The notes below the pieces were generated by a model. The model was not told the DNA's origin, made no database searches, and worked only from the letters and a program-made list of their open reading frames with translations. From positions 174,236 through 238,235 of the forward strand of contig CAWAOD010000015.1 of NCBI GenBank assembly GCA_963783575.1: a stretch of 64,000 nucleotides of DNA, in the 5' to 3' direction. Below are positions 18,587 through 64,000 of this stretch, piece by piece. Both the position numbers and the translations under genes were made by a program. Source of the stretch: an uncultured Spirochaetota bacterium. GTDB taxonomy: Bacteria; Spirochaetota; Brevinematia; Brevinematales; JAOACQ01. Position 1 is the stretch's first letter; each line of letters begins with the position of its first letter.

Positions 18587-18671
18587 TTTGCTTGTATCAT
18601 GAAAGTCACTAGTTAACGCTTGATTTTTCATTTATTTTATGACATACTATTTTCAATATAAGGGATGGCAT

Positions 18672-20127
18672 ATGAATACTTCTTTAATTGATAAAAAAAT
18701 GGATGAAATTAAGCTGCTTCAAAAATACATGGAAAATAAAATATCAGATTCCGCGATTGCTGATTTTTCCAAGGCACTTAAGAAACTTAAGGGCTGGGAC
18801 ACATTCAGAATCAACCCGGTCGATTTCTCACTAAAGAATAACCTTGAACCTGGCAAGACTATCGATTTATTCATTTATGGCGCAAAAACCGGACTTTTTA
18901 ATTTCGAACTGAGCCTTTTATGCCCTTTATGCGGTGGCCGCGAACATAGCTATAATTCCCTTAACCAGCTTGAAAAAGAATCATACCACTGCTCACTTTG
19001 CGATGTTGACGTTGAAGTCCTGGCCGATTCCCATCTTGAGATTTCTTTTACAATACCGCCGGATATCAGCGGTTTTTCTATCAATCCCTTTGTTTCTCTT
19101 GAAAACTACTGGTCTTATTATTTTTCATCATATCTAGTAATGCCCCCTGAATTGCAGTTAGTGTGGGATGATCAGCCTAAATTGAGGTTTGCTGCAATCC
19201 CGCCCGGAAGGAAAGTTTCTGTAAAAATAGGTCTTCCGCTTGTGAAAAAACACCGTTTTGTTTCTCTGAACACGCATTCGATTTTCAGGGTTAATATGCT
19301 TGGTAAAAAGGACGGACTTGTGCATAAAATCCAATTGAATCATCTGGAAAGCGGTTTTGACAAAAAAGAAGAAACCATTGAAGGCTGTGCAGGAGTGGTC
19401 AATATTACCAATAAATCCGGTAAAATGATAGGCTGTGTTTTCGCATCGCCGGATTCAAATCATATTCAGGAGGTTGTAAAAGAATATCCACCCTATTTCA
19501 AGCCCTTTGTGACCGGAAAAATGATACTTAACAACCAGATTTTCAGGGACCTTTTCCTTACGGATAATCTTCCCGATGACCTGTCACTTAAAATAAACGA
19601 TATCACACTTCTTTTCACCGATTTGAAGGGTTCTACGGAACTTTATGATAAATCGGGGGATGTTTATGCTTATAAGCTCGTCCAGCAGCATTTCAGAATC
19701 CTTCAAAAGGTAGTGCATGAGCATGATGGCGGAATTGTAAAAACTATGGGAGATGCCATAATGGCATCTTTTAATACACCGTATGATGGAATAAGCGCCG
19801 CTTTTTCCATGCTCTAAGGAAATGAATATTTTCAACCGGGCTGTGGGCGTAAAAGAAAATCCGATCGGATTGAAAATCGGCCTTCACCGCGGAAACGTTA
19901 TTGCAGTCAAAGCCAACCAGACGCTTGATTATTTCGGGCAGACCGTGAATATCGCCGCACGTGTCCAGGGACTCGCCGGGTCCGGAGAGATTTGGGCCAC
20001 GGATGATATTATGAAAGATAATAATACAACCGGTTACCTTAAGTCTTTAGGCTGCACAATAGTTCCAAAAGAAGTCGCGCTCAAAGGAGTCAGCAGCCAT
20101 GTTAAAACCTATTTATGTTATATATGA
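18672..20127 (+). CDS. class III adenylate/guanylate cyclase with a DUF5939-like N-terminus; 1-bp insertion near 19815
   Basis: CPLCG/CSLC motifs; LFTDLKGST, KTMGDAIMASF, KIGLHRG, DYFGQTVNIAARVQG. ATG CTC (T) AAG GAA ATG joins the two ORFs. Confidence 0.85.
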
Positions 20128-21943: not shown

Positions 21944-22065
21944 AAAAACCGCATACCCGCGGCAGTAGTACTTTCATACCTTCCTTCTTGAAAAAGCACC
22001 GCCCGAGGGGACGGGTCATTTACGGGAAGAACGCTGCGAAAGAATGTGACTTTTGCGTTCCCTCT

Positions 22066-22291: not shown

Positions 22292-22576
22292 TCGCAAAAG
22301 TAACATTCTTTCTCCACTTTACTATCCCGTAAATTTTTAGAATAAAACAGCCGGGATATTGTTAAACAATTCTTTTGTTATCAGCAATAGTCCGAAATTA
22401 CCGGTTCTTTCGATTTATTGGCCGGCTGTTCAAAAGGATTCTTTGATAAAAAAATTAGTAATCAATAGATGGAATATTTGTACCCAATGTAGCTTGATTT
22501 TCACATATTAAAATAATTCTTTTATGATTAATAAAAGTCTGAATTTGAGGGTTCTTTCTGTTTTTGACCTGCTATC

Positions 22577-22631
22577 TTGACAATCAATAAATTAAAATGC
22601 TATAATAAAAATATTTATGTCCGTTGACCGG
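22577..22631 (+). promoter_or_regulatory. strong sigma70 promoter, copy 1 (Pc-like position upstream of a cassette)
   Basis: TTGACA-18-TATAAT with extended -10 TG; the first 38 bp are identical to 25581-25618. Confidence 0.75.
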
Positions 22632-22740
22632 AAGTTTTATTTATTTTTTTAATAATATTTGCATTACGGAAGTCTGAAGCCTCAATTATTACAATTATAC
22701 CATAGAATTGAATATTGGAATAATCGATCACCAGTCCGTC

Positions 22741-22794
22741 GTCTAACTCAGTATATGCGCTCCGTTCTTCGCCTACGCTTGGGAAACGTTAGGA
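22741..22794 (+). other. integron-type recombination site (degenerate attC, or attI/attC hybrid)
   Basis: GTCTAAC ... GTTAGGA boundaries, 54 bp, weak internal symmetry; lies 35 bp before the cassette ATG. Confidence 0.55.
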
Positions 22795-22829
22795 TGACGC
22801 GTTCAGCGCAAGGGAGAAGATAAATACTT

Positions 22830-23720
22830 ATGGAAGAACTCAAAATAGTCAAAATAAATGATAGTATTCATCACATATATGAGTCATTAGGTGTTTATTG
22901 TACATTGATAGTTGGATCAAAAGCTGCTCTATTAATCGATACAGGTTTCGGGTTTGGTGATATTTTAGGTAAGGTAAAGACAATCACTAATCTACCAATA
23001 AAGGTAATAAATACTCATGGACATGTAGATCACATTCAAGGAAACAAGTTTTTCGATGACATAATGTTACATAAAGATGATAGCAAACTAATAAAGTTTC
23101 ATTCATCATTTCTACTGAAGTTATTTATCTATTTTGCGGAAAGAAAGAATCTGAATTTTGAAGAGAAAAAGAATACATCAAAGTTTTTCCAGAAAAACAT
23201 CCAGAAATTAGAGTATGTAAGTGACGGTTACTTAATTGATCTTGGAGATAGAGTTCTGGAAATAATACATATGCCGGGACATACCCAAGGTTCTATTTGT
23301 ATATTAGATAAAAAGGATCGAATATTGTTTTCTGGAGATTCAATCTCAAATGATATTTGGCTGTTCCAAAAAGAATCAACTACAGTAAATAAATTTATGG
23401 AAAGTATGTCAAAAGTTATAAAACGGAAATCAGAGTTTGATGTAATTATATTTTCACATTCATCTGTACTATTTAAAACAACAATATTGGAGAAGATACT
23501 CAATTGTGTGAGGAATATAGATATTCAGAAAAGTTATAGTTATAATTTTCATTTAGCGGGGAAGGCGCTAGTATACAGTGAAGGGTTTGAAAAAATGCAA
23601 TTAAAATATGGTTACAAAACATTTGAAGAATTTCAAAAACATGCAAATGAATTCGATCAAAAAGATATAGCAGATGGTGAATTTGTATCAATAGCATATT
23701 CAAAGATAAAATTAAGCTAG
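22830..23720 (+). CDS. MBL-fold metallo-hydrolase carried as an integron gene cassette
   Basis: LIDTG, THGHVDHIQGN (HxHxDH), PGHTQGS and FSGDS motifs; AT-rich; flanked by complementary core sites. Confidence 0.88.
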   Translation: MEELKIVKINDSIHHIYESLGVYCTLIVGSKAALLIDTGFGFGDILGKVKTITNLPIKVINTHGHVDHIQGNKFFDDIMLHKDDSKLIKFHSSFLLKLFIYFAERKNLNFEEKKNTSKFFQKNIQKLEYVSDGYLIDLGDRVLEIIHMPGHTQGSICILDKKDRILFSGDSISNDIWLFQKESTTVNKFMESMSKVIKRKSEFDVIIFSHSSVLFKTTILEKILNCVRNIDIQKSYSYNFHLAGKALVYSEGFEKMQLKYGYKTFEEFQKHANEFDQKDIADGEFVSIAYSKIKLS

Positions 23721-24852
23721 TGCTTAATTGCGTAAGTTAACGATAGTATTTCTTAATTGAGAACCTTTCACTTCCCGTTTTCTCCACACAAAAGGTTTTG
23801 CGGTTTCAGTGTATGCTTTAACAAATGCATCTATTGCTTCTCTCAATTCTTCCGTGTTTTTAAAACTGGCGCCTCTAAGAGCTTTTCGGCTCATAATACC
23901 AAACCATATTTCCACCTGATTTAACCAACTTGCCGAAGTAGGCGTGTAATGAAAAAAAACATTCTTATTCCGGGATAACCATTCATCGTTCTTTTTGTGA
24001 ATACAATAATTGTCTAAAATTACATGAATTTCTTTATCTTTTGAAACATCTACCACCACTCTATCCATAAACTCAAGAAATTCAATACGTCTTTTGTATT
24101 CAGTAGTTTGGGTGTGTATTAACCCTGTAGCTACTTCCAGCGCAGCAAATAGGTTCAGCGTTCCATTTCTTTTATATGTACTTTTGTATCCTCTTACAAT
24201 TTTTCCATTATCCGTCTCTACATAGCCGGTTGTCCTTTCCAACGCTTGAATACCAGGTTTTTCGTCTACAGATATAACCAATGCATTCATCGGCGGATTT
24301 AAATACAACCCAATAATATTTGTGGCTTTTGTCGAAAATTCAGGATCAGTGCTGACACACCAACTTCGCTGTCGGGATAAGCAAATTCCTTCTTTTCTTA
24401 AAACCCTCCATACCGCATGCGTTGATGTGTTTAAATGTTTTGCTAAAGCCGGACCATCCCAAATTGCCTGCCCGATAGGCGGTGTTTTTTCCAGAGTTTC
24501 TAAAACTTTGTCCCTGAAATTCTGCCCATATATTTTTGGCTTTCCTGACCTGGGCAGATCATACAATCCATCAATTCCTTTTTGCTGAAATCTTTTTTTC
24601 CAATCAATAACCGTATTTGGTCTTATGTGAAGGTCAGCCGCAATCTCAGATACATTTTGTCCTTTCAGGCTATTGACAATTATTTTCGCCCTCTCTACAA
24701 GTCGCGCTTCCATAGTTCGGCTTCTCACCCAACTATCAAGAATAATTTCATCCGCTTTGGTGCATGTTATAACTTGCGTTTTCTTAGACATACAACCTCC
24801 TTTTTTATGTCTAAGATTATAATTAATAACGCTTATTATTGCAATTAAGCAC
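23720..24852 (-). mobile_element. IS630-family element, copy 1 (1133 bp)
   Basis: Terminal IRs GTGCTTAATTGC / GCAATTAAGCAC; TA duplicated within a CTAG target that overlaps the MBL stop codon. Confidence 0.92.
23724..24791 (-). CDS. IS630-family transposase
   Basis: N-terminal HTH; VDEK, ILDN and SWLNQVEIWF (DDE) motifs. Confidence 0.95.
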   Translation of the reverse strand: MSKKTQVITCTKADEIILDSWVRSRTMEARLVERAKIIVNSLKGQNVSEIAADLHIRPNTVIDWKKRFQQKGIDGLYDLPRSGKPKIYGQNFRDKVLETLEKTPPIGQAIWDGPALAKHLNTSTHAVWRVLRKEGICLSRQRSWCVSTDPEFSTKATNIIGLYLNPPMNALVISVDEKPGIQALERTTGYVETDNGKIVRGYKSTYKRNGTLNLFAALEVATGLIHTQTTEYKRRIEFLEFMDRVVVDVSKDKEIHVILDNYCIHKKNDEWLSRNKNVFFHYTPTSASWLNQVEIWFGIMSRKALRGASFKNTEELREAIDAFVKAYTETAKPFVWRKREVKGSQLRNTIVNLRN

Positions 24853-24865
24853 TAGTTGTTAATTA

Positions 24866-24924
24866 TCCTAACAACTGCTTTAGCCTGACTCGCCTTCGGC
24901 TCGCAGGTTAAGCAAATGTTAGCT
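24866..24924 (+). other. attC site (59 bp)
   Basis: TCCTAAC-AAC-TGCTTTAGCCTG-ACTCGCCTTCGGCTCG-CAGGTTAAGCA-AAT-GTTAGCT: R''/L''/L'/R' symmetry with one extra base in L''. TCCTAAC is the exact complement of the GTTAGGA that opens the cassette. Confidence 0.88.
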
Positions 24925-25262
24925 TGGCGAAAAATACAGAAGAGGATTTTTTAAAGTATTCGACGTATGGCACGGCACACAACGTCAATGTAGAATAAGT
25001 CTAATTTAAATTGCAGTTTTCTTCTCCATCCGGTTCCAAAAATTTTTGTTTGCCTGATAGCGCTGATTTTCCTTAAAACAGGCCTCAAATCTAGCAATCT
25101 ACTTTTTTGAAAAAGTGCTCCCAACCTTAAGATTAAAGAAATTAGATTGCTTAAATTGCCCTCCGCAGCATTAGCACCATTTCTGTGCGACATAGTGTTG
25201 CTCGCAGAACTGCCGTTCTGCACTGGATTATTGTTTTTAAGAAGATTTCATGAAGCATCCGA

Positions 25263-25411
25263 GGGCTCACTGAAAATCAGCATAAATCTTAAAATGTTTA
25301 ATAAACAGTATTTTATTGGTGTCATATCCTATTTTATAGCAATGAGTTATAAATGCAATTAGAAAAGGTTGGTTATAGTTTTCAAATTTCAACTCATTTT
25401 TCAGTGAACCC
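25263..25411. mobile_element. candidate MITE (149 bp)
   Basis: 14-bp terminal inverted repeats GGGCTCACTGAAAA / TTTTCAGTGAACCC (1 mismatch) around an AT-rich core. Confidence 0.5.
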
Positions 25412-25580
25412 GTCCTTGCTCCCTTGGTTACTTGGCTTCACTCCTAATTAAACAATATTTTTATGATAAATAATTAGCTGAAATTAGTGGTTCTTTCCGA
25501 TTATTAGCTGGCTGTTCAGGGTATTGGGTATAATTCACAAGTTTGTGGAAGAAAGGATATAGCTCTTTAAATAATGACAT

Positions 25581-25635
25581 TTGACAATCAATAAATTAAA
25601 ATGCTATAATAAAAATATGTCTATCCGTTGATCGG
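25581..25635 (+). promoter_or_regulatory. strong sigma70 promoter, copy 2
   Basis: Same TTGACA-18-TATAAT block as 22577-22631. Confidence 0.75.
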
Positions 25636-25737
25636 GATACTAAAAGTTTAAAGTTTGATATTTGCTAAGTTTTGTACTAACTTAGTATATTGCAAGTTAA
25701 ATGCAATTTGCTGCCAATCAGATTTAAGGAGTAAACT

Positions 25738-27288
25738 ATGGCAAAAGTAAATTTGGATGCATTAATTCCAAGAGAAGATTTTGAAACAGAAGAAACAATG
25801 AAACCGGGTAAAAAAAAGGAAACTATTTCTATAGAAGATTTGAAAAACGAATCTTTCTTTTTACCATTCTTAAGAAAACCAGACTTTCAAAGAGAAACTA
25901 ATGAATGGGATGCAGACAGAATATCTCAATTTATAGAAAGTTTTATACACGGCGATTTAATACCTGCTCTTATTTTATGGAGAAGCTCAACAGGTTTTAT
26001 TTTTGTAATTGATGGCGCTCATAGATTGAGTTCTTTAGTTGCCTGGATAAATGATGACTATGGAGATGGAAAGTCTTCGAAATTATTTTATGATGGTATA
26101 ATTCCTGAAGATCAAATCAATATTGCTGAAGAAATGAGAAGAACTATTAGAAAGGGAATTGGAACTTATGAAGACTATAAATTAGCTCTTACTAATCCAG
26201 ATAAAGTTAAGCCTTTTATAGTCCAATTATCAAAAAACCTTGGTGCATTAGCTATTCAACTTCAATGGGTTGAAGGAGATGTTAAAACTGCTGAAACATC
26301 TTTCTTAAAAATTAATCAACAAGCTGCACCTATTGATCCAACTGAATTGAAACTTCTTGAATCAAGAAGAAAACCTAATTGTATTGCTGCCAGAGCTATC
26401 ATTAGAAGTGGTAAAGGTCATAAATATTGGTCAAAATTTGATTCTGACAATCAAAATAAAATTCAAGATATTGCTAAGGAAATTAATGAGATTCTTTTCT
26501 CACCAAAACTTCAAACACCTATTAAAACATTAGATATTCCAATTGGTGGCAAGTTATATTCTGCTCAAACTTTACCTTTGATTTTAGATTTTGTTAATAT
26601 TGCAAATAACATCAAGAGTGACTTCAAAGACTCTTTAATAGATGATGAAAATGGTAATGCAACAATTGAAATTTTAAATAAAACTCGTAAACTTGCACAA
26701 AGAATTAATAGTATTCATCCATCTTCTTTGGGATTACATCCAATTGTGTATTTTTATTCTCAAGAGGGTAGGCATAAAACCGCTTCGTTTTTTGCAACAG
26801 TTTCATTTGTTATGGATCTTGAAAAAAGAAATAAATTTAATGATTTTATAAAAGTAAGAGAAAATTTCGAGGATATTATATTAGATTATGATTATTTAAT
26901 ACAACAAATATTTCGGAAGTATAGGGGTGCAATTGCAAGTTACCCATATATAAAAGCATTCTTTTTAAAAGTAATTGATCTTTTAAATCAAGGTATTTCC
27001 AAAGATAAAGTAATCGATAATTTAATATCATTTCAAGAATTCAATTATTTAACTTTATACAAAGAAAAACAAGATATATCTACAAAAGACTTTAATACAG
27101 AAAGAAAAAGTGCAGTTTATATTAGAGACGCACTAAAATCTGCACCTAGGTGTAAAATTTGTAATGGCTATCTTCATAGAAATTCAATTAGCATAGATCA
27201 TATACAAAGAAAAGAAGATGGTGGGCTAGGAACTATTGATAATGGCCAAATTAGCCACCCATACTGTAACTCAACCTACAAAAATTAA
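25738..27288 (+). CDS. DUF262 (GmrSD N-terminal/ParB-like) plus C-terminal HNH nuclease; putative anti-phage restriction protein
   Basis: PDFQRE, VIDGAHRL and FLKIN motifs; C-terminal CKIC...IDHI..KEDGG...N...H.YCN. Confidence 0.8.
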   Translation: MAKVNLDALIPREDFETEETMKPGKKKETISIEDLKNESFFLPFLRKPDFQRETNEWDADRISQFIESFIHGDLIPALILWRSSTGFIFVIDGAHRLSSLVAWINDDYGDGKSSKLFYDGIIPEDQINIAEEMRRTIRKGIGTYEDYKLALTNPDKVKPFIVQLSKNLGALAIQLQWVEGDVKTAETSFLKINQQAAPIDPTELKLLESRRKPNCIAARAIIRSGKGHKYWSKFDSDNQNKIQDIAKEINEILFSPKLQTPIKTLDIPIGGKLYSAQTLPLILDFVNIANNIKSDFKDSLIDDENGNATIEILNKTRKLAQRINSIHPSSLGLHPIVYFYSQEGRHKTASFFATVSFVMDLEKRNKFNDFIKVRENFEDIILDYDYLIQQIFRKYRGAIASYPYIKAFFLKVIDLLNQGISKDKVIDNLISFQEFNYLTLYKEKQDISTKDFNTERKSAVYIRDALKSAPRCKICNGYLHRNSISIDHIQRKEDGGLGTIDNGQISHPYCNSTYKN

Positions 27289-27623
27289 CCCGATTGGATG
27301 GAAATGGATTTATAAAATAAGCTTGCTAATGTGCCCCCCGCAGCATTAACGCTATTTCTGATTGAGCTTTTATTTGATTCAAAGGAAGCTCAATATAAAA
27401 ATCGTTGTTATTCCCATTTAATAATAAATCGATCTGTTCGTATTTCGCGGACAGGAAGTTCGCGACCCGAACGCAGCCCGGACTGCAAAGTGAGGTTCTT
27501 TAATTATTGGAAATGATAAACTAATTTACCAGGGTAGCAATAAATGAAATTCCCATACCTGTCACAAACAGATTTCCCATAGGGGGAAATAGAAGTTAAA
27601 CTTTAATGAAAATTCATTAAAGG

Positions 27624-29186
27624 ATGGCAGGAATGGTGAAAAATATTATGTATCAGGACATAAAAAAACTGAAACTTTTGGGGAAAAGTAAAAATGGTGT
27701 ATCCCGGGAACTGTCAATAGATATTAAGACAGTCCGGAAATATTGGACTATGAACGATGCTGAATACCAGAAAAGCCTGATGGAATTCTCTTTCCGTGAA
27801 AAAGAATTCGAAGGAATAAAAACAGACATATTGAAAGTATATGCAAAGAATGATTACATCCGGCTGAATATGTCTGCTTTGTATGACTATTTATTGGAGG
27901 TAAAAGGCAAACTACCGGCGAATGAAAATACGATGAGGAATTTCGTACATTACCTGATTGAAAGCGGGCAGCTTACCTTGAATGAAAAGCGACGGTATTA
28001 CACAAAAGTGCCGGACATGCCATATGGAAAGCAGCTCCAGCTTGATTTCGGTCAATATACCGACAGATATGGCAGAAGGTATTACATATTTGCCGCGGTG
28101 TTATCCGCCAGTCGTTTTAAGTATGCGGCCCTCCAGGAGAGGCCATTCCGGACAGAAGACCTGATCAATCATCTGTTGGACTGTTTCGCATATATGGGCG
28201 GGATACCGCATGAACTTGTCATCGATCAGGACTGCACGATGGTTGCGAGTGAGAACTCAGGCGATATCATCTACACGAAAGACTTTCAGTATTTCATCGG
28301 GGAAATGGGTCTTAAATTGTATGTATGCCGGCCTTCAGACCCGGAAAGTAAGGGAAAGATTGAAAACGTAGTCAAATTCATCAAGCACGGTTTCTTCTCA
28401 GTCCGGGAGTTCAACAGTTTAATGGAAGCGGAAGAAAGCCTGATGAAATGGCTGGAAAGAAAAGCCAACGGGAGAATATCCCAGGCTACAATGAAAATAC
28501 CACTGATAGAGATTGAAACGGAAAGACCATATCTCCAATCTGTCAGGAATTCGATATTCCGTAAAGACAGGATAGGAGCAAGGGAAGAGCGCAGTGTAAG
28601 CGATAAATGCCGGATCGCAGTTGATGCAAGCCAGTATGATATTCCCGAAAAATACAGGAACGGTTCGGTGGACATCTACAAGACGGGCAGTCGGCTTTTT
28701 GTCTTTGACAGGATAACGGGAGAGCAAATCGCCGAATACCGGCTTTCAGTGATTCCGGGGCAGATTGTAACCAACAGGGCAATGATCCGGGAAATGGGAA
28801 AGAGTGTGCAGTTATTGAAAGAAGAAGTAAGCGGGTACTTTGATATTCCCGGCTGGAAGGATTTTCTTGAATGTAATTTCAGGAAGTTCAATCGTTATGT
28901 AAGGGACCAATGTCTTTCCGGAAGAAAATACTTCAGGGACAAGATAATTGATACCGGGAAGCTTACACAAGCGATCTCAAACTGCCTGGAGAGTGATAGT
29001 TATTCCATGAAGGATTTGTGGGATAATTACCTGAACTGTTTTATAACAGAAAAGGCAGAAATACCCTTGAATGTTGAAAAGATTGTCAGGCCTTCAGTGA
29101 ATCCTGAACACTATCTTGAAGTAGCTAAATCAGACATCGGGAAATACCAGAGTTTCTGTGACTCCATCGGGGGCCGGCAATGTTGA
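27624..29186 (+). CDS. istA: IS21 transposase
   Basis: HTH with KTVRKY; QLDFG, VIDQD and ESKGKIENVVKFIK motifs. Confidence 0.93.
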   Translation: MAGMVKNIMYQDIKKLKLLGKSKNGVSRELSIDIKTVRKYWTMNDAEYQKSLMEFSFREKEFEGIKTDILKVYAKNDYIRLNMSALYDYLLEVKGKLPANENTMRNFVHYLIESGQLTLNEKRRYYTKVPDMPYGKQLQLDFGQYTDRYGRRYYIFAAVLSASRFKYAALQERPFRTEDLINHLLDCFAYMGGIPHELVIDQDCTMVASENSGDIIYTKDFQYFIGEMGLKLYVCRPSDPESKGKIENVVKFIKHGFFSVREFNSLMEAEESLMKWLERKANGRISQATMKIPLIEIETERPYLQSVRNSIFRKDRIGAREERSVSDKCRIAVDASQYDIPEKYRNGSVDIYKTGSRLFVFDRITGEQIAEYRLSVIPGQIVTNRAMIREMGKSVQLLKEEVSGYFDIPGWKDFLECNFRKFNRYVRDQCLSGRKYFRDKIIDTGKLTQAISNCLESDSYSMKDLWDNYLNCFITEKAEIPLNVEKIVRPSVNPEHYLEVAKSDIGKYQSFCDSIGGRQC

Positions 29187-29929
29187 AGATAAGAGAACAA
29201 ATCATAACTGCGCTTACAACTCTCGGGTTGAAGGGTATGATAAAACGGATTGATGAGGAAATTGGTGAGGCTGAAAAGGCAAAAGAGTCTTATCTGAGTT
29301 TTCTGCAGAGGCTGCTTTCTCTGGAATTGAATTATAGAGTGGAAAAACGTTTTCAGCGGAATATGGCAGGAGCACACTTCCCGGTCCGCAAAGATGTGGA
29401 AGGTTTTAATTTTGAAAAAGTGAATGGAATATCTAAAATGGATGTTTCACAGCTATTGGATTTCTGCTGGATTGATAATCATCATAACCTGTTGTTCTTT
29501 GGGTCTCCGGGGCTGGGGAAAACGCATCTGGCAATTAGTATCGGAATCCGGGCAGTTGAAAAGGGATATATTGTCTGCTTTGAAAGGATGACTACTCTCA
29601 TTAAGTTTCTGAAAACGGCGGACATCCAGAGAAGCTCTGCTTTCAGGCTGAACCGGATGATGAAGTCACACTTATTAATCATTGATGAGATAGGTTACAC
29701 GCCTATCGAAAAGAAGGAGGCAAATCTATTCTTTAGTCTTGTAAGTGAATTGTATGAAAAGACATCGATAGTGATAACATCGAATAAGGGATTTCAGGAT
29801 TGGGCTGAAATGATGGGAGACCCGATTATGACAACCGCTCTTCTGGACAGGCTTTTACATCATTCAAATATTTATAACTTGAGCGGAGAATCTTACAGAA
29901 TACAAAATTTGAATAAGGAGGTTGAGTAA
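29180..29929 (+). CDS. istB: IS21 helper AAA+ ATPase
   Basis: GSPGLGKTHLA, LLIIDEIGY and LDRLLHH motifs. Confidence 0.95.
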   Translation: MLKIREQIITALTTLGLKGMIKRIDEEIGEAEKAKESYLSFLQRLLSLELNYRVEKRFQRNMAGAHFPVRKDVEGFNFEKVNGISKMDVSQLLDFCWIDNHHNLLFFGSPGLGKTHLAISIGIRAVEKGYIVCFERMTTLIKFLKTADIQRSSAFRLNRMMKSHLLIIDEIGYTPIEKKEANLFFSLVSELYEKTSIVITSNKGFQDWAEMMGDPIMTTALLDRLLHHSNIYNLSGESYRIQNLNKEVE

Positions 29930-30145
29930 CCATTCTTGCCTCCTCCTATGGGAAAAACTCCCGTGGAAGGGGTGGGAAATTACCCGAGTACAGGTATGGG
30001 AAAAACTCTTGACATTTCCAATTATGAGAAAATCTTTAATAAACCTGGAATAACAACACCTCTGTATAAACCGATTGCTTCACATGAAATGGCGTTCATG
30101 CGAAGGGGACGCCTTTTTCTTTGATTACTTTCTTTTTCCGCGGCC

Positions 30146-31871
30146 TTGTCTGTCGAAAAACTATAAAAAGAGAAAAAGCGATTTTCTATAACATTCGGAT
30201 ATCACATTTGATTTCTAGGATATCCGAAAATTAATCTCATATACAATTTATTATAGCTTAAATTACATAATTACACTCCTGTACCATTTTATATCATTCT
30301 CATATACTCAATCCTTTGCATATTACAGCCTGAAAATATTTTCCCAAATTATGTGAAGTGGAATTCCAGAGCCAATCCATTTCTACTTTTTCTTTTCCAC
30401 GATAATAGGTTTGAGAAAAATCTTTCTGCGTTTTAAGGTTGGCAAAATTGTGTTCCTTTCCAATTCTCTTGCTGTATATCTTTTGCCCTTCATCACTTCT
30501 CAATTTATTAAGATAACTGTCGATTTCCTTTCTGTTCTCTAACTCAAACAGATTGAAATTTACAGTCTTTTGGTTTCTGCTGGGATTTATGTTCGTATAA
30601 CATTCCTTATTATTTTCACATTCCTTACATTGTGATCGATTATAGAAAAAGTGGATTTTGCCTCTTTTATCATCAATGTATCCTTTGGTATTTAATCCAC
30701 CACAGCACTTTAACCGATACTCTCTGTTATCACCTTTTATGATTTCAAAATTCTTTCTCTTTTGTACCTCTTTCCCAAAATCTCTCTCTTTTATATCAAT
30801 ATAGCAATCCAATCCTTTTTCTTCCATTTCCAGAATGTCTGTCATATTTTGAAATCCCGAATCCAGCAGGTACTTACTTTCCTGCTTTACCCCCAATTCC
30901 TCTTTAAGCTTTTCCACTTCCTCAATCATGGGTTTCGCACTGTATTTCTCATTCAATTTATCGTTTTCACAGCTTAGTATTATGTCATTGTTACTGATCA
31001 TCATTCTTATATTATATCCCTGAATATATCCGCTCTTGTCAGGCCCCAATGTAAGAGAGCTGTCGGGATCGGTTAAATTATAATGATCTTTGCCTGTAAT
31101 GGTTTTGTCTCCTTCTTTTAATCTTTCTTCTTCAAGCATCTTTTGATAAACTTCCACCTGTTCCATCACTCTGTTGTAAAGCTTTTCCTGACGTTCTATA
31201 CGCTTTTTTTCAGCCATATACTTTTCTTCTTCCAATTCACCACGATTTAGTTTCTCATCTGTCTCCAAACTCCTTTTAACTACTTTGGTTGCCATTTTGC
31301 GGTAAGTTCTCATCACTTTGTCGGCTCTTTCCCTGGTCATCGTCTTTGACTTTGATGCATTGGCTTTGATTTTCGTTCCGTCCCCCACAACTACATCCCA
31401 ATCAATCTCTCCTATGTTATTTAATAAAAAAAGAATTGTCGCAAACAGATTTGTAATTTCGTCATCAAACTGGATTTTAAAATCGCAAAGCTTTGAATGA
31501 TCTATGCTAAGACGGTTTGATACATACATAAATCCTATGTGGGTTCTGAGAAGATTTTCTACCTTGCGGCTGGAATGGATTCCTTGCAAATAACCATAGA
31601 GAATCGCAGATATAACATCTTGAGGATGTTTCCCTTTCCGCCCTGTTTCATCATTGGAATAATATTTATCAAACCTTTGTATATCAATGTATTTCGCCAC
31701 AAACTTTTTTAGAAGGACTTCACGGCTGTATTCATCGAATTGTTCCTGCAAATTGATGGCTAACAATTCTCCCTGGTCTAGATTTCCTCTCTTATATCTC
31801 GCCATTGTCTTTCCCCTCTTTAATTTTGCAACTAACTATTATATCATATTTTCGGATTTTTCGACAGACAA
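30146..31871 (-). mobile_element. IS1182-family element
   Basis: 15-bp IR TTGTCTGTCGAAAAA at both ends, flanked by GGCC on each side (likely target duplication; exact ends could differ by a few bp). Confidence 0.8.
30300..31805 (-). CDS. IS1182-family transposase
   Basis: LYGYLQGIHSSRKVE (DUF772-like), DGTKIKANAS, TDPDS, QGYN, LDSGF and EHNFANLK motifs. Confidence 0.9.
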   Translation of the reverse strand: MARYKRGNLDQGELLAINLQEQFDEYSREVLLKKFVAKYIDIQRFDKYYSNDETGRKGKHPQDVISAILYGYLQGIHSSRKVENLLRTHIGFMYVSNRLSIDHSKLCDFKIQFDDEITNLFATILFLLNNIGEIDWDVVVGDGTKIKANASKSKTMTRERADKVMRTYRKMATKVVKRSLETDEKLNRGELEEEKYMAEKKRIERQEKLYNRVMEQVEVYQKMLEEERLKEGDKTITGKDHYNLTDPDSSLTLGPDKSGYIQGYNIRMMISNNDIILSCENDKLNEKYSAKPMIEEVEKLKEELGVKQESKYLLDSGFQNMTDILEMEEKGLDCYIDIKERDFGKEVQKRKNFEIIKGDNREYRLKCCGGLNTKGYIDDKRGKIHFFYNRSQCKECENNKECYTNINPSRNQKTVNFNLFELENRKEIDSYLNKLRSDEGQKIYSKRIGKEHNFANLKTQKDFSQTYYRGKEKVEMDWLWNSTSHNLGKYFQAVICKGLSI

Positions 31872-55806: not shown

Positions 55807-56939
55807 GTGCTTAATTGCAATAATAAGCGTTATTAATTATAATCTTAGACATAAAAAAGGAGGTTGTATGTCTAAGAAAACGCAAGTTATAACATGCACC
55901 AAAGCGGATGAAATTATTCTTGATAGTTGGGTGAGAAGCCGAACTATGGAAGCGCGACTTGTAGAGAGGGCGAAAATAATTGTCAATAGCCTGAAAGGAC
56001 AAAATGTATCTGAGATTGCGGCTGACCTTCACATAAGACCAAATACGGTTATTGATTGGAAAAAAAGATTTCAGCAAAAAGGAATTGATGGATTGTATGA
56101 TCTGCCCAGGTCAGGAAAGCCAAAAATATATGGGCAGAATTTCAGGGACAAAGTTTTAGAAACTCTGGAAAAAACACCGCCTATCGGGCAGGCAATTTGG
56201 GATGGTCCGGCTTTAGCAAAACATTTAAACACATCAACGCATGCGGTATGGAGGGTTTTAAGAAAAGAAGGAATTTGCTTATCCCGACAGCGAAGTTGGT
56301 GTGTCAGCACTGATCCTGGATTTTCGACAAAAGCCACAAATATTATTGGGTTGTATTTAAATCCGCCGATGAATGCATTGGTTATATCTGTAGACGAAAA
56401 ACCTGGTATTCAAGCGTTGGAAAGGACAACCGGCTATGTAGAGACGGATAATGGAAAAATTGTAAGAGGATACAAAAGTACATATAAAAGAAATGGAACG
56501 CTGAACCTATTTGCTGCGCTGGAAGTAGCTACAGGGTTAATACACACCCAAACTACTGAATACAAAAGACGTATTGAATTTCTTGAGTTTATGGATAGAG
56601 TGGTGGTAGATGTTTCAAAAGATAAAGAAATTCATGTAATTTTAGACAATTATTGTATTCACAAAAAGAACGATGAATGGTTATCCCGGAATAAGAATGT
56701 TTTTTTTCATTACACGCCTACTTCGGCAAGTTGGTTAAATCAGGTGGAAATATGGTTTGGTATTATGAGCCGAAAAGCTCTTAGAGGCGCCAGTTTTAAA
56801 AACACGGAAGAATTGAGAGAAGCAATAGATGCATTTGTTAAAGCATACACTGAAACCGCAAAACCTTTTGTGTGGAGAAAACGGGAAGTGAAAGGTTCTC
56901 AATTAAGAAATACTATCGTTAACTTACGCATTTAAGCAC
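55807..56939 (+). mobile_element. IS630-family element, copy 2 (1133 bp; transposase 55868..56935)
   Basis: Same IRs and CTAG target; the protein differs from copy 1 at two residues (PEFS/PGFS and terminal N/I). Confidence 0.93.
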
Positions 56940-59003: not shown

Positions 59004-62000
59004 TCATTCAATATCGAATTCTTTCATCTTGTAATAGAGTGTGGTGCGTTTTATTCCCAGTAATTTGGCTGCCATGGTCCGGTTCCCTTCCGCTTTTTTA
59101 AGAGATGCTAAAATTATTTTTTTTGTATACCGGTTAAGAAGCTCATCCAGGGTGCCATCCAGGGCTTCTTCCTGGAGACTTTCATTTCCAGGAATTGGGT
59201 AGGATTTATCATTAACTTCCTTTTCAGGCTTAATATTTTCAAACAAGCCCGGTGGAAGATCGGTCAGCTTCAAGATATCACTATCCTTTTCTTTTCTTGA
59301 GGAAACGATAGCCAGGGTCCTGATCACAAGATTTTCCATTTCCCTTATATTTCCGGGCCAATAATAACCGTTTAGCTTTTCCATTACTCCTTTTTCCATT
59401 CTGACCGGGACCTCAATTTGAAATTCTTTTGTGTATTTCCGGATAAAATGATCCAGCAATACAGGTATGTCTTTTTTTCTTTCCCTGAGCGATGGAAGAT
59501 GTATATTGAATACGCTGATGCGATAATACAGATCTTCTCTAAAAGTACCTTCACCGATCATTTTCCAGATGTCCCTGTTAGCCGCAAAAACAAAACGGCA
59601 TTCCGATGAAAGCACCTTGCGGCCTCCAATAGGAGTATACTGGTTCTCCTGCAGAAGACGGAGCATTTTGGATTGAATTTCGAGGGGCATTTCCCCGATC
59701 TCGTCAAAAAAGAGAGTCCCTTTTCCGGCTGTTGAAACAAGGCCTTCCCGGTTTGTTTTCGCGTCCGTGAATGCGCCTTTGATATGTCCGAAAAGCTCGG
59801 ATTCCCAGAGTGTTTGCGGGATAGTTGCACAGTTAACGGCAATAAAAGGCTCATTTTTATGTTTTCCAGTATTATGGATAAGCTTGGCGATTAGTTCCTT
59901 TCCTGTGCCGGTTTCCCCCGTTATCAGAATTGGTCTTGATATTAGGACCACCTGGTTTACTTTATCAACAACTTCCTGCATTTCCTGGCTCCTAAAAACA
60001 ATGGTGTTTTTATCATCAAGAAGCTTTTCCTGTCTTTGGGATATATGGACAGTCAGTTTTTCCACCTCATCTTCGATACGGCTTTTAATCGCGTTAGTCC
60101 GTTCATACAACCTGGCATTTTCTATGGAGATGGCAGCCTGGGTCGTAATCGCTTCCAGAATTTCCACATCCTCGCTTGAAAAGATAGAAACGGATAAGGG
60201 ATTATCAAAATAGCAGACACCTATGATTTTTTCATGGCGCTTGATAGGAATACAGAGGATAGATTTCAGTTCGTACTGAATAACGCTGTTGAATTCCGAT
60301 AACTTTTCGTCTTTCCCCGCGTTGGCCGAAAGAATAACCTCACCCGTATTGAAAACTTTCTCGACAATATTCATAGAGAACTGGTCCTGCCGGAAAGGCG
60401 GAATGTCTTTGTCCTTGTAATCATGGATATCGGATTTGACGCGCAATTCCAGAATGCCGCTTTCTTCGTTTTTTATGAACAAGTAACCTCTCTGAGCTCC
60501 GATCGTCTCCATAGCCAGGGATACGATATTATTAAGAAGCTGGTCGAGATGAAGGATTGAACTAATGGTTTGAGTTACTTTTATTATCGAGGACAATCTT
60601 TCTCTATTCTTTAAATGTTGAATGGAATCGACGGCTTCTTCCTCCCGGCCATTTTCACTAATTCCAAGAATATCGGAAACCCTTTTTAAATAGTCTGCGG
60701 ACCCGATTTCCTTGAAAAGAATGTAAGCGGATTCAAGGTTTTTTTTGGCTTCCCCGAATTTTCCTGTGTTTTTCAGAAAGAGCGCGTACTCATAATGGCT
60801 TTTTCCTGATTCGTATTTTTGGCCCAATCGGTCTGCAAGTTGGATGCTTTGTAAAAATAGTTTTTCTGCTTTCTGTATTTTTCCGGTCAAAGTGTAATAT
60901 TTGCCGCTCACTCTCAATGCTTCCGTATAAAGAACCAGCCAGGATTTTGTTTTATGGAGGGCTTTATTAGTGATTTTTTTTATAGGGATAAGGTTCTCTG
61001 TCAAGGCAATCTTTTTGATTGAAGTATCATGATTAAATTCTTTTTTATATTTTTCTATTAAAGTGTCCGCAAGAGAGGGATAAACATATTCGGAGTATTG
61101 TTTCAGGAAATGGTTCTTCTCGTTGATATTCCTGGATTCATTCAGATACTCGATGGATTTGTCATAATCTTTCATTTCCTTATAAATTCTTCCAAGATTT
61201 AATGTTGTGAAACACTTAACAAAGTCAAATCTGTTTCCCTCAATTATTTTTAATACTTCATCATAGTCATTTATGGCTGATTGATAATCTCCCTTAATGT
61301 AGTCGATCAGGGAATAGTGATCCAGAACATTGCATTTACCATTATTATCATTCAATTGCCTGCTGATATTAAAGTACAATTGAAGAAATTCCATACCTTT
61401 ACTGCAGTTACCCCGGTAAATATGATTAAGAGACAGCCCGTTATAAACCATACTCAGTTCCCACAAATCGCCTATTCTTTTAAATATCGTTGCACTTTCT
61501 TCGAAATAGCGGCTGCTTGTTTCAAACTCGCCTTTCCATTGGTAACAAAAACCTAACCACATAAGGGATTGGGCACATCCCCAAGTGTCGTCCATCTCTT
61601 TCCTGTACTCCAGGGCCTTATTGTGGAACTTTATCGCCTGCTTAAACAGCGGAACGGCCATACAGACACTGGCGAATCCGCCAATGCATACACTAAGCTC
61701 TGTAGAATTTCCTATTTTACTTTCGGACAGATTCAATATCCTTAAGGTTGTGCTGACTGATTTCAATACATCCGTCAGGAAGTACATCCAGGTCAGACTC
61801 TTATAAAAGCCAATAATCAGTTTATATTTATCTTCTTCAGGGTTTCTTTTTTTTCTGAAGAAGAGTGCTGGAAAGAAGTTATGTAAATTGTGCAGGATCA
61901 ATTCCTTTAAAATTCTCAGAATTACGAAAGCATTCCTGATCGGCAGTTTTTCTCCCAGTATGGATAAACCGATCCTTCCGTATTCTTCGCAATTTCTCCA

Positions 62001-64000
62001 ATCCCCTTTTTTAAAATAGGCTTCGCTTGTCTTTTTGTACACATCAGCAATATCAAGTTTAGTGCTGATAAAAGAAAGTAATCTGTTATTGATTTCTATA
62101 GCTTCATCGTTTTTTCCTATAATCAGGTAAATTTCACTGATATTTTTATTAGTGTTGACCCATAATTTTCTTTCCTCTTTTATTTTTTTCTCAGCCAGGG
62201 TATTAACCTGTAAAAAATATTTTAATGCTTCTTCATAGGCAAAGTTTTCCTTGGCTTTCAGGCCTGCGGGGTATCCGTATTCCAGGATCTTCGCATCATT
62301 TTTACCTTCAATATAATGATAGATCAAGTCAAAGACAATTTTATCCTTTTCATTCGGATATAAACTTTCCAGCATCATTCCTATCTGCATATGCAGGCCT
62401 TTCTTTTCTTCCTCGCCAAGTTTCCTATAAAACGCTTCCTTTATTCTGTCATGCGCAAAAAGTATTTTCCCATTTTCCTGCAAATCCTCCTCCAGCAACT
62501 GGAGATGAATAGCCCTGTCCACTATCCCGATAATCTCCGATGCTTCGTAATCCAGAAGACGAAACAGCACTTCCACATCAAACTTTCTTCCGATGACCGC
62601 AGCAAAAGACAAAACGCGGGATTCTTTATCACTGAGTAATGAAATCCTCTTCATAACAACATCTAATATCGTGGGAGCTATCTTGGTCTTATCCAGAATT
62701 TCCTGATCGATTACCCAGCCTTTCTCTTTGTAATAAATCACTTTTTCATCTACAAATTGTTTTAATATTTCAATCGTAAAGAATGGATTACCTTTACTTT
62801 TCTGATAAATAATTCCGGATATTTCATCAATATTTTCTTCTTTTGCGTACAAAAGCGAACTGACAAAACTGTGATTCATAGTTTTGTTAAAAGTTTCCAG
62901 GTAAATTTCAGTAAAAGACGCTTGCTTTCCAGCGCTTCCTTCCGATACACGCTTACCCGGTGTTCATAATTAACTTCATCGTTCCGGTATGTCCCGACAA
63001 TCAGGAGCGGGTATTTGCCCATCTCTTCCGATAGCTCGCTTAAGAGATCCATACTTCCATCGTCAACCCATTGCAGATCGTCCAGCAATAGTACCAACCC
63101 ATTTTCTACAATGCTCAGGTTCAATATAAACTGGGCTGCAACCATCAAAAACCGTTTCTTCTCCCTTTCCGCCTCCAGCCTAACCAATTCTTCGCTGTTT
63201 TCAAAGATTACCGAAAACGAGGCACTCAAATTGAAGAATAATTCCGCTCAGATTTCCTGTCATTTCGATGAGTTCATTTTTAATTTTCAGTTTTTTTTCA
63301 TCAGGGTAGTCCTGGTATATCTTTAAATAGATATTAAGGGCATCTTTTATTGCTCCGTAAGGGGTCTTGCTTTTTCCCGAAAAACATTTGCCATAAATAA
63401 AAAGCCCTCCTATGGAATAAACGAAGCTTCTTAATTCCTCTACGAGTCTTGTTTTTCCTTTACCCGCCTCACCGCTGATCAGGCAGACATTACCTTTATT
63501 ATCCAGCGCTTTGCCATATAAGCTCATTAGATTTTTTAGTTCCGCTTCGCGGGATATCAGCCCGGTTTTAAACGAAAGCCTTATCTGTTTGTCATTCAAC
63601 CCCAGAGGAAAATTATGCATGCCTTTTTGATATTTTTCCAGATCGTCCATTAGTCCTTTAGCGGACAGGTAACGGTTATCCGGTTCTTTTTCCAGGAGTT
63701 TCAATATAATACTTTCAAGTATTTCAGGAATAACCGTATTGTATTTAGAGGGAGGATCGGGAAGCATGGCAATCTGCTGGTGGATAATAGAGCTGATGCT
63801 CGTTACTTCAAAAGGCAAAACTCCGGTAAAGAGCTGGTATAAAATAATGCCCAGGGAATATAAATCGCTTCTCTCATCAATGCTTCTCCTTGTAACACCG
63901 AAATGCTCCGGCAACATATAGCTGAAAGTGCCGGCGATCTTGTCCTGTTCCTTTATCGACGAAAACTCTTTTACAAGCGCCATTCCAAAATCAATGATCG
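59004..64000 (-). CDS. Ser/Thr kinase - AAA/STAND ATPase - TPR - GAF - sigma54 activator - Fis HTH protein; 5' end outside the window; frameshifts near 63225 and 62905
   Basis: IDFG, RSDLYSLG, GEAGKGKT, LDDLQW and GNPFF motifs; TPRs; GAF domain; GETGTGKE, GAFTDA, FREDLYYR, WPGNIRE and C-terminal HTH. Confidence 0.9.

Follow-up and report, generated by a model that had tools for sequence, protein, structure and literature searches.

Integrons are modelled as having one attI site and one cassette promoter (Pc) per array, which limits the number of strongly expressed cassettes, and new cassettes are taken to enter at attI. Arrays without an integrase gene are found by their attC sites alone, and attI is not searchable in most lineages (PMC4889954); an additional domain of the integron integrase IntI has been described as necessary for integron recombination (10.1101/2022.02.06.479319). 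We analyzed a window of 64,000 nucleotides (positions 174,236 to 238,235 of contig CAWAOD010000015.1, here C15) from assembly GCA_963783575.1 of an uncultured Spirochaetota bacterium (Brevinematales, JAOACQ01), in which an earlier note, made from the window alone, had described two tandem modules of promoter and cassette-like gene and had proposed that they are stand-alone landing pads for cassettes. The assembly comprises 4.9 Mb in 18 contigs, is 89.85% complete and has its sole IntI-like gene on contig C5. Its RecA most resembles RecA proteins of Brevinematales. Sequence comparison suggests, with a probability of about 0.6, that this genome carries integrase-free integron heads, that is, multiplied units of a promoter and an attI site, and that the two window copies are decayed members of this set.

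The promoter block shared by the two modules (block b) occurs in 14 copies on six contigs, with different genes after every copy and no ordinary housekeeping gene behind any of them. In an unbiased scan of the whole genome with the 27 nt that end at the GTT just after the IntI-like gene (up to six mismatches), seven matches were found: one beside the IntI-like gene itself and the other six, all of them, within 400 bp downstream of a b copy and on the same strand. The chance of this linkage is 0.00057 per site, and a reversed-genome control gave 0. At the solo sites attI is copied in full, over as much as 53-55 bp, and two of these sites are identical to the intI-adjacent attI at 42 of 43 positions. 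With weaker sites included, 12 of the 14 b copies are accompanied, at 41-355 bp, by an attI-like cassette head; eight of these heads match the main attI at 16-20 of 20 positions and four at 7-13, and in five of the 12 an exact 8-10-nt inverse core recurs at a later attC-like site. Four further attI-like heads lack b, two of them forming a tandem on contig C16, and attI-like sites in the genome number at least seven and up to about 17. The cassette-head pattern alone is not enriched (135 occurrences vs 132 in the reversed control), and a generic attC finder proved too strict, recovering only the window attC among the known sites.

That one local segment of intergenic DNA was duplicated to give the two modules, and that their integron-like motifs arose by chance, is hardly credible. 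The earlier note had listed such a duplication among the outcomes that would overturn its proposal, and the two promoters, identical at 38 of 38 positions and 3 kb apart, do look as one would expect of it. The spread of b over six contigs and its linkage to attI against an empty control run counter to this explanation, as does the finding that the match of b1 to other b copies extends further than its match to b2.

It is improbable, in our estimate, that b is instead a mobile promoter, or the outward end of a palindromic repeat, near which cassettes or attI fragments landed at secondary sites (attG, delta-attI cassettes) and were kept since they were expressed. The neighbouring block a is the end of a palindromic repeat of about 270 bp, present in 21 genome copies (copy numbers of the repeated blocks are from iterated profile searches of the genome contigs); 10 of the 21 have b within 300 bp downstream, and 9 of the 14 b copies follow block a. 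Consistent with a mobile promoter, the likeness among b copies stops a few bases past their conserved tail, a and b are weakly alike (score 30.0 vs 24.4 when shuffled), and minimal promoter-attI pairs with other promoters exist at C16:32451 and C16:33463. Against this, five b copies have no block a, no copy precedes a housekeeping gene, and the linked sites are full attI copies, whereas attG has been reported to be unlike attI (10.1101/2022.09.11.507474). The pairs just named are two tandem units of 46-55 bp (C16:33509-32451), and the gene that separates them (302 aa) has no attC, its end falling within the -35 box of the second unit, a layout that fits a delta-attI cassette.

The likeness of a and b was too weak a signal to take b for a copy of a, and the b tail was rejected as a LexA box, there being no full LexA in the genome (85.6 bits vs a cut-off of 110.95). 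A search for an IS91-type mover gave no Y2_Tnp match anywhere, and its controls were likewise blank. A DNA search with blocks a and b returned only three weak matches in 34 other genomes of the order, and the b pattern is present in one of 12 family genomes, its own. At C12:17097 and C13:202368, upstream of two further cassette regions, another promoter block is shared (159 bp, 91% identity).

The IntI-like gene (C5:457099-458190) points into a co-oriented array (C5:457099-481399) with 12 attC right arms, of 28 genome-wide. Many attC sites of this main array are unusually long, about 240 bp, and the same long family occurs in the dispersed arrays; the first attC of the main array folds with a z of -3.40 (0 of 200 shuffles as good). 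The main array is tied to the dispersed ones by its contents: two cassettes are 2598/2600 identical between it and the b-headed array at C9:382286, and the shared block starts at the crossover G behind different upstream attC arms and runs into an insertion sequence (IS). On this identity, the block shows recent traffic between arrays. If the standard route of entry applies, the solo attI of the C9 array would have been used after the transfer event. The mosaic at C9:382103, in which the upstream flank is common to one pair of copies and the downstream spacer to another copy, fits homologous recombination around b.

These observations also bear on the possibility that the units are frozen relics, leftovers of once-complete integrons that were loaded while an integrase gene was adjacent and never used in trans, whose promoter persists only by expressing the first gene. 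Integrase C-terminal remnants, consisting of the last 25-28 residues, lie between b and attI at C13:218524 (E 1e-5) and C4:26890 (E 1.5e-4); the copies that bear them are deletion products of co-oriented integrons. Moreover, three near-identical integrase genes in the relative G011 show that whole integrons multiply in this family, the host IntI-like gene is broken, the window copies are decayed, and about a third of intI genes have been reported as pseudogenes (PMC2426708). On the other side stand the cassettes that are 99.9% identical between a solo and the main array and joined at the crossover, and the solo attI sites that match the main one at 42 of 43 positions with no integrase trace nearby, none having been found near any other attI head. 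We consider it unlikely that the units are frozen relics.

Several findings weigh against multiplied, integrase-free heads as well. An integrase remnant is kept by only two of the 14 b copies. The block shared with the main array has the second place in the C9 array and stops within an IS, and as such shows inter-array traffic and not use of the solo attI. The four weak heads (7-13 of 20) among the 12 were chosen from the DNA that follows b. Neither side of the main intI shows block b, which was also not found in 11 family relatives or beside any intact integrase gene; it may have begun as Pc, as the promoter of the integrase or as the end of a repeat. The host IntI-like gene is split over three frames; because the IS630 copies show 0 gaps in 14,814 bp, an assembly error is unlikely and a true pseudogene is probable. 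Barring an intact copy in the unassembled part or one gained by transfer, the system may by now be frozen. Finally, the intact relatives of this recombinase lack the IntI additional domain near patch III (about 42 residues fewer than PDB 2A3V and 37 fewer than an IntI-type protein), and all three of them score 212-219 bits against a TIGR02249 cut-off of 265, which leaves it unproven that this clade recombines attC. The Atlas clusters nearest to these proteins consist mostly of recombinases from Bacteroidota. The system is integron-like by anatomy but not by the IntI-specific domain.

The same recombinase is encoded in five of 11 family genomes, and an attI-like site follows it in the six loci listed. 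The relative G011, from another genus, has four IntI-like genes. It also carries a solo promoter-attI unit at C6:171585 whose sequence is homologous to that of the promoter-attI lying behind one of its integrase genes; this unit heads an attC array, with the nearest IntI-like gene on the contig 255 kb away, and a second solo site lies on C2. Two of the G011 recombinase copies hold different cassettes at the same GTT. The three near-identical IntI-like genes of G011 (on C1, C6 and C7) each lie downstream of a type I methyltransferase-like gene, two of them with different first cassettes. In a crude count of attC sites around 53 AT-rich integrase loci (GC-rich and IS91-like ones dropped first), eight lie downstream on the same strand vs one on the opposite strand, and upstream seven vs two; a metagenome scan with one integrase gave one distant locus.

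Within the window (Table 1), the four repeat pairs on which the earlier note had built its modules were verified, with 53/71 identical positions in block a, 38/38 in promoter b, 13/14 in motif c and 25/29 in block e. The promoters, there called near-consensus, match the consensus fully in both copies, and each GTT site lies 42 bp ahead of its ATG. Both cassette genes are AT-rich (29% G+C vs 37% for the genome) and keep the identities proposed for them, a metallo-beta-lactamase (MBL)-fold hydrolase and a GmrSD_N (DUF262)-HNH protein. As the note had stated, there is no intI in the window, where no tyrosine recombinase maps. Its notion of motif c as one homologous element in both modules was not confirmed: the left arm of c1 fits that of an attC at 13 of 19 positions and c2 at only 5, while c2 scores as an attI and the GTT of c1, at 22788, scores -24.7 in the forward direction. 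On these scores, the 13/14 likeness of c1 and c2 does not make them one element.

Table 1. Features of the two modules, in coordinates of the window.
Feature	Position	Strand	Remarks
Block a, copy 1	22351..22432	+	3' end of a dispersed palindromic repeat (~270 bp) starting near 22000; outside the integron platform proper
Degenerate second block a	22503..22574	+	directly before b1; E 6.7e-10
Promoter block b1	22577..22634	+	putative Pc; -35/-10 12/12 consensus, 18-bp spacer, conserved tail
Unique 108-bp stretch	22635..22742	+	where attI is expected; single copy in genome
Motif c1	22741..22794	+	attC-like but degenerate; its left arm starts at 22741 and the crossover G is at 22788
Cassette 1	22788..24918	+	MBL-fold hydrolase gene 22830-23720, own attC
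IS630-family element	23717..24856	-	inserted at MBL stop codon; transposase 23724-24791; NF033545 above cut-off
attC of cassette 1	24866..24924	+	59 nt; crossover G at 24918
Block e, copy 1	25150..25239	+	truncated; left end of repeat
Element m	25261..25418	+	158 bp, inverted ends, resembling a MITE (miniature inverted-repeat transposable element); between e1 and a2
Block a, copy 2	25446..25519	+	left-truncated; profile match
Promoter block b2	25581..25637	+	putative Pc; 12/12 consensus, 18-bp spacer
Motif c2	25677..25702	+	diverged attI; crossover G at 25696
Cassette 2	25696..27289	+	GmrSD_N (DUF262)-HNH gene 25738-27288
Block e, copy 2	27320..27480	+	E 3.7e-42

Because module 1 has no recognisable attI, we read c1 as an attC remnant and not as a landing pad. 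The fit of its left arm is to a main-array attC and is equalled or bettered by a fraction of 0.00095 of 20,000 sampled sites; it folds poorly, 101 of 200 shuffles being as good. An inverted attI was also considered for c1 and is disfavoured: the minus strand scores 12.1, but an attC left arm reads so by symmetry, and the flanks fit attC. The unique stretch ahead of it is probably the 3' remnant of a deleted first cassette, its GC-rich last 13 nt resembling cassette ends. Cassette 1 itself is sound, its first 8 nt pairing exactly with the 8 nt that end at the attC left core, and the bottom-strand hairpin of its attC has a z of -2.27 (6 of 200 shuffles as good). The MBL-fold protein stays below all beta-lactamase cut-offs. 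The earlier note omits the IS630 element (1.14 kb) and the well-folding attC between the MBL gene and block e, as well as the degenerate block a directly before b1; the IS630 element has CTAG at both ends and 13 copies more than 98% identical in the genome. Behind the attC (24918-25150), a further cassette head is followed by a scar that resembles an attC-targeting IS end.

Module 2 retains more of the expected head. With an attI matrix trained on nine sites outside the window, c2 ranks 64 of 149,296 GTT sites; it matches the intI-adjacent attI at 13 of 20 positions, and the 13 nt from its GTT are identical to a main-array cassette head. The comparison of motif c with that attI, which the earlier note had called for, relates c2 to it and leaves c1 out as a forward attI. 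The stop codon of the DUF262-HNH gene lies inside an inverse core that is complementary to the cassette head at 6 of 7 positions, and no attC hairpin follows the gene (197 of 200 shuffles fold as well); this cassette is probably fixed, its attC gone. Homologues of the DUF262-HNH protein occur in many phyla, and a search at E 1e-80 through 400 further genomes from its own phylum did not find the protein. Taken together, the idea of stand-alone promoter-attI units with their own cassettes appears right across the genome, where the best sites are nearly identical to the intI-adjacent attI, and half right for the window, with module 1 the part that does not conform.

Blocks a and e, which the earlier note had counted as parts of the landing pads, both belong to longer dispersed repeats. 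Block e has 41 genome matches and forms the left end of a longer repeat (about 270-300 bp) whose ends are inverted; only three of the 14 b copies, among them the window's own two, have it on the same strand in the 6 kb downstream, and because just 4 strong copies of e, out of 38, lie within 6 kb of any b, it is no cassette boundary. Both Y1_Tnp (RAYT-like) transposase remnants in the genome (C3:121030 and C4:184483, partial) lie about 650 bp or less from e copies, which hints that block e is a family like the repetitive extragenic palindromic (REP) sequences. Element m occurs at 21 distinct places, with eight additional self-reverse matches, and its copies are mostly 88-99% identical.

Some further observations concern mobile DNA and neighbouring genes. 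An IS1182-like IS end (on our reading of its transposase) abuts the attC left arm at 9 of 14 motif matches (C4:21610, C5:476346, C5:479092, C9:387963, C10:77453, C10:82573, C10:86263, C16:115971 and C16:118844), apparently marking an attC-targeting IS. Of the public sequencing runs listed as sharing words with the sequence, none was from RNA and none contained as much as half of the words. In three public sequencing runs the matching contigs were mostly IS elements, and no junction at a cassette boundary was found. The window is also an IS hotspot, with IS21 (istA/istB), a DDE transposase and a second IS630 copy at 27624-31805 and 55868-56935. A guanylate-cyclase-like gene at 18639-20127 is apparently split into two open reading frames, and a kinase/AAA/sigma-54 activator region at 59004-63983 into three. 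An Rfam search gave a single match (E 0.58), far under the cut-off. Elsewhere, tyrosine recombinase genes stand next to each other in five pairs (about 450 and 350-370 aa; C5:3402-32380 and C15:6573-27747), which are unlinked to attI sites.

Under multiplied heads, an ancestral integron-like system, its recombinase gene pointing towards attI and the cassettes, would have had its head, promoter plus attI, multiplied, the recombinase gene being lost by deletion. Homologous recombination through the b and a blocks that the copies share would have rearranged them, giving about a dozen promoter-attI units that each head one to four cassettes and that may have exchanged cassettes with the main array until recently, the recombinase acting in trans. 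Module 1 would be without its attI and the greater part of its first cassette, leaving b1 ahead of an attC remnant and the MBL cassette, and module 2 would have kept a diverged attI and lost the attC of the DUF262-HNH cassette. The numbers of copies, the linkage of b to attI, the integrase remnants, the cassettes common to two arrays and the decay are all observed, while promoter activity, recombination at the sites, the acting enzyme and the order of events in this account are inferred.

A bolder version is possible, if doubtful: a distributed system in which a central store of cassettes and at least 12 chromosomal promoter-attI docks are all served by one recombinase that lacks the IntI additional domain. 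The dock would itself be able to spread, for instance as a circle of gene, promoter and attI excised between two attI sites in tandem, such as those at C16:33463/32451. If so, several cassettes would hold the first, strongly expressed position at once. Apart from these accounts, an array of 12 attC sites is headed here by a recombinase that lacks the domain considered necessary for recombining attC, and the intact relatives of this enzyme make the matter directly testable.

Many promoter-attI heads scattered over one chromosome were not described in the literature that we searched, in the parts available and with most subscription journals outside its reach. Measured against a complete integron, the window has no intI adjacent to attI. 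An attI with a GTT crossover is present in six strong solo copies and, weakly, as c2 in the window, and is absent at c1; attC sites whose R and L boxes pair and whose bottom strand folds are present. The closest described relatives are the Treponema-type chromosomal integrons, in which intI is transcribed towards attI (PMC3607928). They share with our system a spirochaete host, a single direction of recombinase, attI and cassettes, and palindromic attC sites between short accessory genes. They have one attI per integron (PMC3607928), in contrast to the many attI-like sites counted here, where, in addition, the recombinase clade lacks the IntI additional domain.

A repeated promoter before unrelated genes is likewise a mark of the gene-less promoter cassettes of Vibrionaceae (10.1101/2023.11.21.568050) and of putative mobile promoters (PMC3575422); block b differs from both in being followed by attI, not attC, and in being tied to cassette arrays. 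The delta-attI cassettes of integron classes 1 and 2 resemble our units in their extra attI copies and in attI-gene-attI layouts recombined by IntI1, with one delta-attI2 fragment of 244 nt (PMC12901181). Such cassettes sit inside a mobile integron array and replace attC, whereas here attI heads separate chromosomal arrays; the tandem at C16:33463/32451 comes closest, and in the window the MBL cassette keeps its own attC.

CALIN (attC clusters that lack an integron-integrase) and SALIN (single attC sites that lack one) are alike in having cassettes and attC far from intI, with possible mobilisation by an integrase encoded elsewhere (PMC4889954; 10.1101/2022.09.11.507474). For both, attC alone is the defining feature; a CALIN that has split off is described as severed from Pc, and a SALIN as using an attG unlike attI, whereas here the arrays keep attI and a shared promoter. 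The window holds one good and one degenerate attC, and other b-headed arrays, such as that at C16:120156, fit the CALIN definition; the attG of a SALIN does not describe module 2 and at least six other copies, which have attI homologues at the insertion point. If many CALINs keep a promoter and an attI in this way, they would be expressed, reloadable sites and not leftovers, which bears on how CALINs arise.

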